Below are positions 1-4,640 of a stretch of 24,041 bases of DNA, piece by piece. The DNA lies in the NCBI GenBank assembly GCA_019057865.1, contig JAHLWP010000050.1:1-24041 (forward strand), given 5' to 3'. Every line of letters starts with the position of its first letter. The stretch's first letter is position 1. A model generated the notes under the pieces. The model was not told the origin of the DNA, searched no databases, and saw only the letters and a program-made list of their open reading frames with translations. Source of the stretch: Promethearchaeota archaeon (lineage in GTDB: Archaea > Asgardarchaeota > Lokiarchaeia > Sigyniarchaeales > SOKP01). Position numbers and translations under genes: made by a program.

Positions 1-55
1 TTGGAAACAATTGATGATCCAATCATCTTACCATCACTGAATTTTTTAACTAATC
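1..55. mobile_element. Terminus of a second IS related to the element at 2173-3808 (rest lies outside the window)
   Basis: 32-55 CATCACTGAATTTTTTAACTAATC matches TIR 3785-3808 CATCACTGAATTTTGTAGCCAATC at 21/24 positions; similarity continues inward (3-31 vs about 3757-3784). Confidence 0.85.
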
Positions 56-63
56 TCTAATTT

Positions 64-74
64 TTCTTTAAATA
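64..74 (+). promoter_or_regulatory. TATA-box-like motif TTCTTTAAATA upstream of the 138 gene
   Basis: Fits archaeal TATA consensus TTTAWATA; same motif precedes three other genes in the cluster. Confidence 0.6.
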
Positions 75-137
75 GAATGAAAAGATTTTAAATTAATTTA
101 GTTATCAAAATCAAAAAAATATGGTGATGGATGAATT

Positions 138-359
138 ATGGATGCAGATTCATATTTTACTAAAGTTGTTGAAGGTTATGAATTTCTTATTGCTTTTCTA
201 TCATTGATAGGATTTATTGGAATTCTGGTAGGATTTGCTATGTTATTAGTATTGGGCAGATATAATCGAAGTAATGCTTTTAAAATCATAATCATTAGTA
301 TTATAATTTTATCATTAACAGGATTAGCAACAGGTATTAATTATTTTCATATTGAATGA
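138..359 (+). CDS. Small two-TM membrane protein
   Basis: 73-aa ORF with two hydrophobic helices separated by GRYNRSNAFK; GGTGAT SD-like site at 123-128. Confidence 0.8.
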   Translation: MDADSYFTKVVEGYEFLIAFLSLIGFIGILVGFAMLLVLGRYNRSNAFKIIIISIIILSLTGLATGINYFHIE

Positions 360-443
360 GTCAAAAAAGTACAGAATGACATTAGATATTACTTCGGTGG
401 TTTATCAACTCCTTCTAATGGATTTTTAGAGAATTAATTGGAT

Positions 444-761
444 TTATATTGCAGTCAGAAAAAATCCTGAAAAAAGAATTATAATTGCTATAAATTCATT
501 CCTAATTGCCTTCAAAGCACTTCTAGGCACATTTGAGACTGCTTGGAAAAAGGCAATAAAAACCAAAATTGTTCCAATAATTATAAGTAAATTCCCAATC
601 GTGTTAAATACTTCTGAAACCAAAGTTCCTATCTGAAATCGTAAATCTTTCCCATAAAATGGATAATATATGGCGCCAAACAATATTATCGCTAGAAAAA
701 TCCAAAAAACTTTAGACCCACGTCTTCTTCCATTATACCCATAGGATTTATAACGGCTCAT
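444..761 (-). CDS. Small membrane protein (about 3 TM, basic N-terminus)
   Basis: 105-aa ORF, hydrophobic segments, GAGGT SD upstream of the ATG. Confidence 0.8.
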   Translation of the reverse strand: MSRYKSYGYNGRRRGSKVFWIFLAIILFGAIYYPFYGKDLRFQIGTLVSEVFNTIGNLLIIIGTILVFIAFFQAVSNVPRSALKAIRNEFIAIIILFSGFFLTAI

Positions 762-801
762 TTTTGTTTTACCTCTTGCATTATTTAAAGCTAGTTATTA
801 G

Positions 802-821
802 TGAGTATATTTAAATAAAAA
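802..821 (-). promoter_or_regulatory. Shared promoter motif TTTTTATTTAAATATACTCA
   Basis: 19/20 identical to 1897-1916; about 40 bp upstream of the 761 start. Confidence 0.65.
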
Positions 822-845
822 AATCCAATTTTATTTCTTAGAATT

Positions 846-1850
846 TTAAAACTTTAACTCAAATTGACTTTTTCTCTTCTTTTGATGATAAAAAACAGCA
901 ATAAGTACAGATAAAGTTATACTTCCTATAAAAGTAAAGAACCCCAACGTATATTCTATAGGAACAGAGAAGGTAAAACCCCTTGTTTCATTAGAAGGTT
1001 CATGGTGTGTTTCATTAACAGGTCCGATAATAGCATGGGCAATATTTACATTGCTAGTATAACATTCTATTCTCAATCTTACTTTATGGACTCCTGCTAC
1101 AGCAGTACTGAAATTAAAAGAATGGAGATCACCGATAACTGTCATCGTTAAATTAGTATAAATCTCAAAGTTGACATTATTAGAATCTGTAATATTGTAA
1201 TTAAGCTTTATGAGGTTATTTTCCTCTTTAGAGATTGACGAGACTCTTCCTATATAGAATTCATAAGCTGAACTCTTATCTATAAAAACAGAATGCTCAA
1301 TGTACGTCTCATTGTATACTCTAGATACATTATAAAACACAATGTTATCAATCTTTTGAGAGGGGATCTTATCAAATAGAATTTTTGACCCTTCTTCTAT
1401 TTTAATAAGAACATTAATATTTGTAGGTGTTTCCACAGAGAAATTTATGATGTAAAGACCAGAGAGAGCAGTTCCAAAAGGTATCTTATAAGATTTATGA
1501 CTTCCAGAGTAGTAATCCAACTCATTTTCAAATATATTATATTGTTGACTCTCAGGATCCCAAACTTGAATTTTCATTATAGATACTAAGTTAGGCACCA
1601 TCACTTCTATATCTATATAATACATAATGCAATCATGAAAATACAACATTAATGATAATGTATCATTTGGAGCCATAAAAGTATAAATATCATCGGGTAA
1701 ATTAGATTGTTTAATATTTATTGGCTCTTCTTTCACGATATTCTTATCCCTATTAAAATATAACTCTTTATAATCTATAGGAAATAATATTTGTAAAAAG
1801 AGTGTAATTAGCATAAAATAAATCAATAAATACTTAATTTTTCCTTTCAA
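846..1850 (-). CDS. Surface protein with N-terminal signal/TM, beta-rich extracellular region and C-terminal TM anchor
   Basis: 334 aa, TTG start with GTGAGG SD, hydrophobic N-terminus, C-terminal TM followed by basic tail KKRK, several N-x-S/T sequons. Confidence 0.85.
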   Translation of the reverse strand: MKGKIKYLLIYFMLITLFLQILFPIDYKELYFNRDKNIVKEEPINIKQSNLPDDIYTFMAPNDTLSLMLYFHDCIMYYIDIEVMVPNLVSIMKIQVWDPESQQYNIFENELDYYSGSHKSYKIPFGTALSGLYIINFSVETPTNINVLIKIEEGSKILFDKIPSQKIDNIVFYNVSRVYNETYIEHSVFIDKSSAYEFYIGRVSSISKEENNLIKLNYNITDSNNVNFEIYTNLTMTVIGDLHSFNFSTAVAGVHKVRLRIECYTSNVNIAHAIIGPVNETHHEPSNETRGFTFSVPIEYTLGFFTFIGSITLSVLIAVFYHQKKRKSQFELKF

Positions 1851-1896
1851 CTATCCTCACTTTTAACTACAGAAGTTTAATTAAATATTGATCTTC

Positions 1897-1916
1897 TGAG
1901 TATATTTAAAGAAAAA
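1897..1916 (-). promoter_or_regulatory. Shared promoter motif TTTTTCTTTAAATATACTCA
   Basis: Contains exact TTCTTTAAATA (1903-1913, minus strand); about 47 bp upstream of the 1850 start. Confidence 0.65.
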
Positions 1917-1930
1917 TTTTTGGTCACAAA

Positions 1931-2172
1931 TTAAAAAAATAGTGGAAGGCATGTTGTAAAACCAGTTAAAATTCCCATCATAACTCCCGCAAATAGACTT
2001 ATAAGTGCTTTTTTAAGATCAAATAGAACTCTGCCTATACCAAATACTTATTATTATATTTATGAATGCACCAAACGACACAGTAGCTATTATTGCCTGA
2101 TAATGGCTAATATTTAACCTTTTCTTTCTTTCTCTTCCTTTAACATTTTTACTATTTTTGATTTGATGTTTT
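1931..2172 (-). pseudogene. Frameshifted small membrane-protein gene remnant next to the IS
   Basis: Manual translation gives ...KGRERKKRLNISHYQAIIATVSFGAFINIIISI then, after a frame change near 2040, GIGRVLFDLKKALISLFAGVMMGILTGFTTCLPLFF*. Confidence 0.45.
2165..2172. repeat. Target-site duplication, left copy (GATGTTTT)
   Basis: Identical 8-mer at 3809-3816 directly flanking the other TIR. Confidence 0.9.
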
Positions 2173-2226
2173 GGGTAGTTACAAAACCCAGTGATGTGTA
2201 TTAAACATTTCCATTTTCCTTATTCT

Positions 2227-3639
2227 TTAAATTTTGGCAAAGTATTGCCTCCAAAGTCGTTTGTAATTTCCGTACCACTTATCAAGCTTTATTCTTTCAT
2301 GCTTAAAATACATTCCATGCCCTCTTATTGAGGGATGATAGTGAGTTTCTCGAACTAATAACTGATAATTTTCATATGTTTCATTGAAATCATCAATAAA
2401 TTCAGGAAATTTACCAAAATTATGCCTAAATACACGATAATCAAGTACTCTCTGTGCCCCTTCAGGAGTCATCATGCTCCTTTTAAACGATGGATAATAG
2501 GTATATTTCTTATGGAACCCTTCTAAGAGGTTATTCGTGGTTGTTATGAACGGATTCCGCTGATGGGCAATAATTTTCGGAAGCCATGACTCCAACTGCT
2601 TTAATGCAGTATGAAGCTCTTTTATCTTCTTTCCTTTCAAGCGTTCCACTGTTCTACGTATGATCTCTAATTTAATATATGCATCTGCTTCATCCTTAGA
2701 ATCAATCAGATCATAGAATCGCTTCAAAAGCCAACGCCATTTTTTAGGAACAGGTTTTCTTGATTGTTTCGATAATCCCGCAAATGCTTTTACATGCTTG
2801 GAGACGATCCATTTTACATGTGTTAAGCAATTTTGCTGTATTATATGCTTAAAACTTCTGGTTCTAAAGAGTCCGCCTAAGTTTGTAGTACAATCTTTCA
2901 TTAATCCATTTATCCACAGATTTTTGCCCCTCCTTCCTTCCATTAACACTTCCCTGCCCTCATTGCGCCCCATATGCTCTGAAATTTTAGCCACTGGCAC
3001 AAATTGGGTATTTATATCCACCGTATCTATAGCATACATCCGTTCTTTGCTAATTCTTAAATGGATCTCATCATATCCCCAATATCCGCTAGAAGGCACA
3101 GGTGTCTCTTTTAACATCTTTCTAAGCGGTCTAGCAACCTTATTTATCCAATTTACAAGTGTAGTTAATGAAATCTGTATACCAAAATCAATTTTAAACA
3201 CTCGCTGAATTTGAGAGGGCATCAACCCTTCCATATAATGTTGCCGTGTCCTTCGTGTATAATTCTCATGGTAATTGCCATATTTTGGCGCGATCTTCGA
3301 ATAATCAGGTTTAATTTCTCCACATCGAGGACAACGCTTTCTCTGAATGTGAAACTCGTGTCTCCCAAGCCCGTTATCTAAAATCGCAATCCTGTCATTA
3401 TGTCCATTTTTCACCAATCGAGAACCACATGTAAGACAGTGTGTCTCTTTAATATATATCGTTCCATTTCCTTTCATTCTTAAGGTATAACCCTTATCAA
3501 TAGATAATGCCTTTCTCCTTTTCACTTCAGCCAGTAGACTATGATTTTTAGGTTCAGGTAAATTAGGAAAAAATTTATTTAGAGTGTATTGTTCTATCTT
3601 AATGGGAGCTAATTTTTCTCTTATTTTACTTATTAGCAT
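2227..3639 (-). CDS. DDE transposase with N-terminal zinc ribbon
   Basis: CxxC...CxxC, HTH-like region, GYDE (D1), MKDC (D2), QNCLTH (CxxH signature of Mutator/IS256-type enzymes), TTNNLLEGFH (E). Confidence 0.93.
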   Translation of the reverse strand: MLISKIREKLAPIKIEQYTLNKFFPNLPEPKNHSLLAEVKRRKALSIDKGYTLRMKGNGTIYIKETHCLTCGSRLVKNGHNDRIAILDNGLGRHEFHIQRKRCPRCGEIKPDYSKIAPKYGNYHENYTRRTRQHYMEGLMPSQIQRVFKIDFGIQISLTTLVNWINKVARPLRKMLKETPVPSSGYWGYDEIHLRISKERMYAIDTVDINTQFVPVAKISEHMGRNEGREVLMEGRRGKNLWINGLMKDCTTNLGGLFRTRSFKHIIQQNCLTHVKWIVSKHVKAFAGLSKQSRKPVPKKWRWLLKRFYDLIDSKDEADAYIKLEIIRRTVERLKGKKIKELHTALKQLESWLPKIIAHQRNPFITTTNNLLEGFHKKYTYYPSFKRSMMTPEGAQRVLDYRVFRHNFGKFPEFIDDFNETYENYQLLVRETHYHPSIRGHGMYFKHERIKLDKWYGNYKRLWRQYFAKI

Positions 3640-3661
3640 AAATAAATTAAGGGAAAAGCTC

Positions 3662-3676
3662 CCTATAAATCTTTCG
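3662..3676 (-). promoter_or_regulatory. BRE-TATA promoter of the transposase (CGAAAGA-TTTATAGG), probably leaderless
   Basis: Purine-rich BRE followed by a TATA box ending about 23 nt before the ATG at 3639. Confidence 0.65.
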
Positions 3677-3808
3677 CCATTTCTAAATCAGTTTCCATCG
3701 GAAATTAAGGAGTTCTAATTTATCTGATTTAGGAAATCCTTATTCTTAATGATTATGACACAAATTGTGATCAGATCATTTCGCCATCACTGAATTTTGT
3801 AGCCAATC

Positions 3809-3816
3809 GATGTTTT
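3809..3816. repeat. Target-site duplication, right copy (GATGTTTT)
   Basis: Identical to 2165-2172. Confidence 0.9.
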
Positions 3817-3830
3817 TTCTTTAAATACTC
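3817..3830 (+). promoter_or_regulatory. TATA-box-like motif TTCTTTAAATACTC upstream of the 3906 gene
   Basis: Same motif as 64-74, 802-821 and 1897-1916. Confidence 0.6.
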
Positions 3831-3905
3831 CAGCAATATTATTATTCAACTTAATTATAACTAAAGCATATATATGAAGACTACTGATTTTAGAGGATTA
3901 AGAAA

Positions 3906-4640
3906 ATGAAATATAATAATAGACAGATATTTAAAGGATTGTTTATAGTTGGAATCATCTTGCTCTTTATATCGTTATTTTTGGATTGGTATACCTTCGA
4001 AGTGTACAATATAAATAAAGATCTCATTGCTTCATGGAATTACCACCATTTTACTGGGTGGACTACCCCCCTGTTAGATGCGTTTACCTATAATGATCTA
4101 TTTAGACCACATAATTTAGATATCTCTCCAATCCTCCATTTTCTTTTCATGTTCATCATAATCTCCTGTGCATTTACTACATTAACCAAAGATGTGGAGA
4201 AAGTTAGCTCACCTCAAAAACTTAAAAATTATGCATATTTAAATCTATTTTTACTCTTACTGGTCGGTTTTTATATTATTATATTTCCTATAGGATATTT
4301 ACTTCCCAATGAACTTTATTTTCCCTTTAATATGGTAGAAGATCATGATGCAAATCTATTCTATGTGTACTCACTAGATATAGGATATTATTCTCAAGTA
4401 ATAGGCTTTGTCTTAGTGTTTCCCTACTCCATTTTTTATTATCAGACCATTACTCATTTTGAAAGAAAGGATCAAACAGTTGAAAAAGTAATTGGTAAAT
4501 ATATCCAAGAAATTCAAGAACCGTTAGATATGGATAAGTTTATAGCCGAAGAGGTGCTAAAACAACGCATTAAGAGCGAACTTCCACCAAAGGTATTTGA
4601 ACATAACTCTTCTAATATTGTTAAAAAGAGGGTAAAATGA
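3906..4640 (+). CDS. Four-TM membrane protein with soluble C-terminal tail
   Basis: 244 aa, four hydrophobic helices, LFLDWY after TM1; GAGGA SD; ATGA overlap with next gene. Confidence 0.88.
   Translation: MKYNNRQIFKGLFIVGIILLFISLFLDWYTFEVYNINKDLIASWNYHHFTGWTTPLLDAFTYNDLFRPHNLDISPILHFLFMFIIISCAFTTLTKDVEKVSSPQKLKNYAYLNLFLLLLVGFYIIIFPIGYLLPNELYFPFNMVEDHDANLFYVYSLDIGYYSQVIGFVLVFPYSIFYYQTITHFERKDQTVEKVIGKYIQEIQEPLDMDKFIAEEVLKQRIKSELPPKVFEHNSSNIVKKRVK

Follow-up and report, generated by a model that had tools for sequence, protein, structure and literature searches.

The window analysed here, the first 24 kb (24,041 nt) of contig C43 of a Promethearchaeota genome (GCA_019057865.1; 87 contigs, 4.26 Mb, 29% G+C), holds two copies of an insertion sequence (IS), each lying at a fixed short distance from a host TATA motif; all positions are given in window numbering. 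We propose, with a probability of about 0.8, that they represent a 1.6-kb IS family of one Loki-type order which encodes an IS256/Mutator-like transposase and inserts at a fixed distance from, and in a fixed orientation to, a host TATA box. The target site reads 5'-NNNNTTTT-TTC-TTTAAATA-3', and integration is an 8-bp staggered cut made at one place and in one orientation, the cuts falling 3 and 11 bp upstream of the octamer. The transposase gene is oriented divergently from the host gene, and the transposase-proximal inverted repeat (IRL) is the end turned toward the TATA. The 8-bp target-site duplication (TSD) rebuilds the target, so that the 11 bp ahead of the TATA remain native and promoter and coding regions are spared.

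The IS at 2173-3808 is the sole full copy in the assembly, with one transposase gene assembled. The initial annotation had described a complete IS ending at 3808, followed by an 8-bp TSD with the motif 11 bp away, and its coordinates were all confirmed. It had further noted a second, diverged end at 55 with a different 8-mer and the identical motif; this is also correct, the order there being TCTAATTT, TTC, TTTAAATA, and bases 31-55 match 3784-3808 at 22 of 25 positions. Since the window is the start of contig C43, this second copy (type B, as distinct from the type A copy at 2173-3808) is truncated by an assembly break, and no type B interior was found anywhere in the assembly. Its other end could nevertheless be located at the start of contig C34, where the transposase-distal inverted repeat (IRR) is immediately preceded by TCTAATTT, which answers the check proposed in the initial annotation.

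Type B ends terminate four contig ends in this genome. The end of C34 holds a third intact proximal end of type B followed by AACTTTTT-CTA-TTTAAATA, C71 terminates in a distal end, and the remnant of a proximal end from a further subfamily (C55:56225-56272) adjoins ATTATTTT-ATT-ATTAAATA, with the octamer at the standard offset. The word [AT]TTAAATA is thus present at +12 to +19 in all four usable proximal ends of this genome, against a background of 5.0e-4 per position and strand, so that the chance of three further matches at one fixed offset is about 1e-10. The TSDs, the outer flanks and the IS interiors all differ, indicating that the insertions are independent and that no duplicated segment is involved. 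A different repeat of more than 300 bp, found in five copies mostly near contig ends (C33:2280, C50:7550, C58:54909, C61:5424 and C66:163940), holds TATTTAAAGAAAAAATCTTC internally. This repeat, a separate multicopy element or gene family, uses the same promoter-like word but does not represent a junction of the present IS with host DNA.

More than 150 homologues share 51-99% identity with the transposase, the named ones almost all from Promethearchaeota (Loki) or Odin-type metagenome-assembled genomes (MAGs) or from sediment metagenomes; the hits of an exhaustive search fell into 111 clusters at 50% identity, and among 400 species-representative genomes of the phylum the family occurs in 22, all within one order. 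One hundred loci were fetched, both ends were located and duplicate flanks were removed, leaving 70 unique proximal-end flanks (further loci, L116-L145, were mostly duplicates of earlier ones and added no new sites). Of these 70 independent insertions, which come from the present genome, further Asgard genomes and metagenomes, 65 have a TATA-like octamer at the exact offset. Subfamilies as distant as 32% identity show it too, bearing out the expectation that further copies would show the motif at a fixed offset. In transposase orientation, positions -19 to -5 read TATTTAAAGAAAAAA (T-A-T-T-T-A-A-A-G-A-A-A-A-A-A), with conservation of 53-97% per position and of 79-97% once the G (53%) and the fourth base (71%) are set aside. 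Exact TATTTAAA is found in 41 of the 70 flanks; the spacer is GAA in 33 and TAA in 15, and the TSD starts with AAAA in 50. The word TAT[AT]TAAA occurs at offset -19 in 45 of 66 proximal flanks and at other offsets in three, and is absent from all 54 distal-end flanks. It is the IRL that adjoins the motif in all sites scored, and IRL and IRR are consistently unlike in their outer 8 nt. Both flanks carry the same 8-bp TSD in 14 loci, in addition to the two window copies.

Four loci of distant subfamilies (32-43% identity) carry TATTTAAA or TATTAAAT, followed by 3 nt, 8 nt and then the IS. Their spacer and TSD are purine-rich and not an A-tract, and at one of them, L113 from a GC-richer host, the octamer alone is AT-rich. 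Exactly 8 nt beyond the distal end, 6-7 of 59 flanks contain a further proximal end or what remains of one, forming head-to-tail tandem arrays (L001, L009/L060, L014, L026 and L047, the proximal end being intact or decayed). The duplication regenerates the 11 bp beside the box, so the site stays targetable, which would give rise to such arrays. L001 is an odd locus with 11 extra nt. L010 and L011, both of one Odin-type MAG, share an identical 19-nt flank (TATTTAAAGAAAAAGGATA), the DNA further out being unrelated and a matching TSD being present in one only; they may reflect recombination between copies or two near-identical promoters.

The target motif is host DNA. At the orthologous position, two congeneric genomes lack the IS (L154 and L155); their empty site reads ...TTGATTT GATGTTTT TTC TTTAAATA CTC..., with GATGTTTT in single copy, and its left flank aligns with a mean column identity of 72% over about 240 columns. 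At the empty site of one of them (G179), an upstream co-oriented gene ends and is followed by a T-rich spacer, the TATA and, 48 nt later, an ATG (MQTGKK...); the octamer there consequently points to the downstream gene and away from the position of the IS. A variable TSD between IS end and motif likewise means that the motif cannot belong to the element. The initial annotation, which had taken the motif for a host sequence on account of unoccupied copies near 761 and 1850, was right on both counts, the copies being present at 808-821 and 1903-1916.

Several lines of evidence suggest that the targeted octamer is a promoter element. It reads TTTA[AT]ATA-like away from the IS throughout, and when the nearest open reading frame (ORF) of at least 50 aa was taken on each side by crude ORF calls, the TATA side faced 34 outgoing and 8 incoming genes and the other side 13 and 21, respectively (Fisher p = 2.9e-4). 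This arrangement suggests that the gene on the TATA side uses the octamer as its TATA box. The extended motif TATTTAAAGAAAAA occurs 40 times in the host genome against about 1.8 expected by our estimate from base composition, a roughly 20-fold over-representation, and almost all occurrences are intergenic. Seven of 41 empty motif copies have the ATG of a long ORF 21-24 nt after TTTAAATA, and none of the 41 shows this spacing in the reverse sense; some occupied sites likewise show a spacing of 21-25 nt. A gap of 21-24 nt is typical of leaderless genes in this genome, where the TTTAWA word peaks at -32 to -29. TTTAWA-anchored logos carried too much noise to reveal a B recognition element (BRE), for which strand-asymmetric k-mers worked better, and upstream regions of tRNA genes, intended as a promoter standard, were uninformative with 13 tRNAs called.

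Besides the crudeness of the ORF calls, a number of observations weigh against this reading. The 6-9 nt upstream of the targeted TATA are rich in T and pyrimidines, not purine- or A-rich as a BRE would be, whereas the directional signal of the host is A-rich (AAANTTTAAATA, 15 sense vs 5 antisense; AAAGTTTAAA, 14 vs 1) and the promoter of the IS itself, unlike the targeted sites, is also A-rich upstream of its box. Empty copies of the extended motif are unbiased in orientation (17 tandem-sense, 15 tandem-antisense and 24 divergent), so the gene-start bias of the occupied sites could partly be due to selection after insertion, through loss of harmful insertions. The two targeted TATAs of the window lie 78 and 63 nt from the next long ORFs, with closer TATA-like boxes present. 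Against the targeting as a whole stands that identical TSDs were seen in only 14 of the 36 loci in which both ends were found. A possible, weaker remnant of a proximal end from a further subfamily (C48:6188-6211) lacks a TATA-like octamer at the offset. The earlier proposal of TATA-promoter targeting is supported, but the target is narrower than a promoter in general, namely a specific 15-bp motif made of a T-tract and TTTAAATA without the canonical A-rich BRE; generic TATA-like sites lack the T-tract. The site is therefore a specific subclass of TATA site.

The transposase carries a DDE catalytic triad D190/D249/E373, in which D190 and D249 are invariant and E373 nearly so (alignments of 34 and 86 sequences), and N-terminal zinc-ribbon cysteines C68/C71/C103/C106. 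An AlphaFold2 model from 86 sequences reached a predicted local distance difference test score (pLDDT) of 86 and a predicted template modelling score of 0.79, replacing an earlier poor model from 16 sequences (pLDDT 63). Its best Foldseek match in the Protein Data Bank (PDB) is the IS256-family, Mutator-like transposase of ISCth4 (6xg8_A; E 5.6e-14, TM-scores 0.50/0.57 over 390 columns), which is also matched by a sequence profile in hmmsearch at E 3.5e-8. The DDE residues sit on an RNase H-like fold with a helical insertion before the E, and the element has terminal inverted repeats and an 8-bp TSD, all features of IS256/Mutator-like elements. Pfam and NCBIfam models gave sub-threshold matches only (DUF6431, IS6, IS66 and ISL3, and IS256 and ISH6 for distant relatives). 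The IS256 equivalog NF033543 is not matched by the window protein and is matched below threshold by twelve distant relatives; the ISLre2 model NF033529/UPF0236 is likewise not matched by the window protein and is matched weakly by 2 of 34 distant relatives; and the IS66 model NF033517 scores 29.8 bits against a cut-off of 180. The family is an unclassified branch of the Mutator/IS256 supergroup.

The disordered N-terminus also contains a PCNA-interacting peptide (PIP-box) pattern, QYTLNKFF (Q17-x-x-L20-x-x-F23-F24; residues 17-24, window 3568-3591 on the minus strand). Of 137 full-length relatives, 111 carry the strict pattern and many of the rest read QxTLxKFC; the distant subfamilies retain Q-x-x-L-x-x-F. 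PIP boxes are known in the Pogo transposase. An archaeal IS1634 transposase binds PCNA (PMC5371812).

Table 1. Coordinates of the IS copies, their target sites and related motif copies in the window.
Feature	Position	Strand	Remarks
Complete IS, type A, 1636 bp	2173..3808	-	Imperfect terminal inverted repeats of about 24 bp; perfect 8-bp TSD on both sides
Transposase gene, 470 aa	2227..3639	-	Single ORF of the element
IRL (transposase-proximal inverted repeat)	3784..3808	-	End facing the TATA motif in every site scored
IRR (transposase-distal inverted repeat)	2173..2198	-	Conserved terminal GGGTAGTTAC; in transposase orientation ...GTAACTACCC
TSD GATGTTTT, left copy	2165..2172	+	Single in orthologous empty sites L154 and L155
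TSD GATGTTTT, right copy	3809..3816	+	Adjoins IRL
Host target motif: spacer TTC (3817-3819) and TATA octamer TTTAAATA (3820-3827)	3817..3827	+	Points away from IS
Predicted promoter of the IS itself: GAAAGA (A-rich BRE) and TTTATAGG	3662..3675	-	22 nt before transposase ATG
IRL end of second, diverged copy (type B)	1..55	-	Cut by contig start; same 55 nt end contig C34
TSD TCTAATTT of type B copy	56..63	+	Partner directly outside IRR at start of contig C34
Spacer TTC and TTTAAATA (67-74) beside type B copy	64..74	+	From the sequence
Unoccupied motif copy (TATTTAAATAAAAA on plus strand)	808..821	-	46 nt from start of gene 444-761 (-)
Unoccupied motif copy (TATTTAAAGAAAAA on plus strand)	1903..1916	-	Upstream of gene 846-1850 (-)

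The promoter of the IS itself is conserved in the form GGAAAG-ATTTAAAG in 66 non-identical elements. Nearly all elements, including those whose proteins are 55% identical, place the transposase ATG 170 nt from the IS end (window 3640-3808, minus strand). This constancy suggests a leader of constrained length, with features such as binding sites or a structure in addition to the conserved promoter. On the host side of the insertion, a comparison of window 3828-3905 with L154 (G179:C47) and L148 revealed that in two congeners a single contig carries both the targeted promoter and, at a distance of about 12 kb and inside an operon, the orthologue of gene 3906-4640. Judging from this arrangement, a deletion here seems to have joined gene 3906 to the promoter and the very beginning of the original coding sequence, of which an 11-codon ORF (3872-3907) is left.

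How the association with the TATA arises can be explained in several ways, and survivorship alone is ruled out, as it cannot yield an offset fixed to a single base pair. That the motif is part of the IS end, that the loci were duplicated from one insertion or that the matches arose by chance has next to no probability: the identical 19-nt flank of L010 and L011 speaks for it, but a variable TSD separates IS end from motif and recurs at the other end, the motif stands in empty sites that have no IS, the sequences outside it bear no relation to one another, and the chance expectation is as low as stated above within this genome alone. The motif as a part of the IS is excluded by the TSD position together with the empty sites, and a segmental duplication of the two window loci, which the initial annotation had named as a possible refutation, by their differing TSDs, flanks and interiors. 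The idea that the transposase recognizes a sequence which merely resembles a TATA box and has no promoter role, the gene-start association being survival of harmless insertions, draws on the unbiased orientation of the empty extended-motif copies, the lack of a canonical A-rich BRE and the high information content of the target over 15 bp. We consider it unlikely given the over-representation and almost exclusively intergenic location of the motif, the seven empty copies at leaderless spacing before long ORFs with none in the reverse sense, the 34 to 8 excess of gene starts at occupied sites, the orthologous empty site 48 nt ahead of a co-oriented gene, and the octamer standing as the lone AT-rich element at L113. 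More improbable still is promoter capture, in which the targeted TATA fires through the proximal repeat into the IS and drives the transposase. It was weighed because of a GARAG block: the transposase strand reads (GARAG)-TATTTAAAG-purines, like the GGAAAG-ATTTAAAG-GGAGC of the IS-own promoter, and transcription beginning 22-23 nt past the box would start some 12 nt into the IS. Gene arrangement led to its rejection, since the side so served mostly holds incoming gene ends (21 vs 13 outgoing) and firing at the G179 empty site would be antisense into the 3' end of the upstream gene; moreover, the purine block lies 2-3 nt further from the TTTAAA core than a canonical BRE, and the IS has a conserved promoter of its own.

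For the targeting step itself, the initial annotation left a choice between guidance by the TATA sequence and guidance by bound TATA-binding protein (TBP) and transcription factor B (TFB), of which the former is better supported. Direct readout of sequence or shape, to which we give roughly even odds, is favored by the sites being more uniform than host TATA usage (TTTAAATA over TTTATATA at about 6:1 at target sites vs about 1.8:1 upstream of host genes, and exact words in 41 of 70 flanks) and by extra conserved positions on both sides of the octamer. The competing proposal, that the transposase docks on TBP-bent TATA, alone or with TFB, much as Ty3 integrase exploits TFIIIB, cuts one helical turn away and reads the sequence only indirectly, is possible but clearly the less probable of the two. 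In its favor, conservation centers on the canonical octamer of archaeal TATA boxes, read in sense with the neighboring gene, the octamer is kept in distant subfamilies while the A-tract is not, an oriented protein-DNA complex would fit the fixed side and orientation, and the conserved disordered N-terminal peptide of the transposase could bind a host protein; the same logic has been proposed for TnGBS by Guerillot et al. 2014 (PMC3942029). On the other hand, the target T-tract is not found in generic promoters, and the cuts, 3 and 11 bp from the TATA edge, fall within the BRE stretch. No single partner is obvious among three TBP and about 11 TFB paralogues (TBP genes at C9:61908-62600, C53:32695-33243 and C54:65480-66019; TFB loci such as C77:12215-12769). 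The TBP encoded on C9 is 90-97% identical across the family and has an acidic N-terminal tail of about 45 residues. A complex prediction of the housekeeping TBP core with the full transposase scored 0.00, but was run without controls and counts neither way. Archaeal TBP-TFB-DNA structures have TFB covering the BRE stretch in which the cuts fall; a full initiation complex should therefore block the site, which leaves naked DNA or a TBP-only complex as the substrate.

Under direct readout, an asymmetric transpososome, which the invariant orientation requires, would read the sequence or shape of the TATA and T-tract without a bound TFB, probably through the N-terminal zinc-ribbon/helix-turn-helix region; for TnGBS-like elements, Guerillot et al. 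argued alike from unlike terminal repeats (PMC3942029). By homology to IS256 relatives, transposition probably proceeds via a circular copy-out/paste-in intermediate, and a regenerated site that is hit again would yield the head-to-tail tandem arrays. The many TFBs may correspond to several promoter classes, one of them perhaps the T-tract and TTTAAATA class targeted by the IS.

This work defines a new IS family whose targeting is precise to a single base pair. Its hosts, the Asgard archaea, have the transcription machinery that among prokaryotes comes closest to modelling the eukaryotic one, and the family lends itself to testing how a TATA box or TBP is recognized by a DDE transposase. The work also shows a mobile element multiplying in a gene-dense genome without breaking genes, and marks a distinct promoter class (T-tract and TTTAAATA without an A-rich BRE) in genomes with many TFB paralogues. 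The strict site and orientation specificity may make it a safe-harbour insertion tool once Asgard genetics exists. If, as we suggest only tentatively, the transposase recognizes a TBP-bent TATA complex, the family would be an archaeal DNA-transposon forerunner of Ty3-like integration tethered to the initiation complex, located in the lineage closest to eukaryotes, and each insertion would serve as a natural record of where TBP is bound in vivo in Asgard archaea that have not been cultivated.

Promoter-seeking transposition is known in bacteria (TnGBS, ISLre2) and in eukaryotes (Ty1, Ty3, Tf1). Our full-text literature searches found no precedent in archaea, and a 2026 census of archaeal IS elements mentions neither promoters nor target sites (PMC13343696). 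The initial annotation had suggested an archaeal counterpart of the promoter targeting by bacterial Mutator-like elements, and this is supported by the fixed distance and orientation, the facing of gene starts and the ISCth4-like fold; because the transposase folds like that of ISCth4, the comparison fits better than could be known at that stage. The nearest parallel in behaviour is offered by TnGBS, ISLre2 and ISKra4-group elements (Brochet 2009; Guerillot 2014). These members of the Mutator-like supergroup insert 15-17 bp upstream of the -35 boxes of sigma-A promoters in a fixed orientation (PMC3942029). They share with the present family a Mutator/IS256 DDE transposase, a fixed distance to a core promoter element, a conserved orientation, asymmetric repeats and the sparing of genes. 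Unlike those bacterial elements and their -35 box, the present family is archaeal, inserts 11 bp upstream of a TATA, has a much more uniform target word and matches neither ISLre2 nor ISKra4 models.

ISCth4 and IS256 (PDB 6xg8 and 6xgx) have in common with it the DDE residues on an RNase H fold with a helical insertion, a TSD of 8-9 bp and terminal inverted repeats. However, the identity is about 15%, the scores are far below the IS256 equivalog cut-off, and the present family has in addition the N-terminal four-Cys zinc ribbon and the disordered PIP-like peptide. We know of no comparable site specificity in IS256. ISH6 is, like our element, a single-ORF archaeal IS with an 8-bp AT-rich TSD, and Guerillot et al. 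speculated that its AANATNTT preference might favor promoter or intergenic regions (PMC3942029); its preferred word, however, is the duplicated site itself, no fixed TATA offset has been reported, and the ISH6 model is matched by distant members of the present family alone, all below threshold. The weak hidden Markov model similarity to IS66, IS6 and ISL3 (PF03050, PF13610, NF033587 and NF033517), of which IS66 and ISL3 also have an 8-bp TSD, remains far below curated cut-offs, the ends differ, and the tnpA/tnpB accessory genes of IS66 are missing. The TFIIIB-tethered Ty3, together with Ty1 and Tf1, resembles the present family in the fixed position relative to a TBP-containing initiation complex and in the safe haven upstream of genes; those, however, are retrotransposon integrases whose host tethering has been demonstrated experimentally, whereas for the family described here direct DNA readout is at least as likely as tethering. 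The principle is already known; what is new is its occurrence in this domain of life, with this promoter element and in this IS family.

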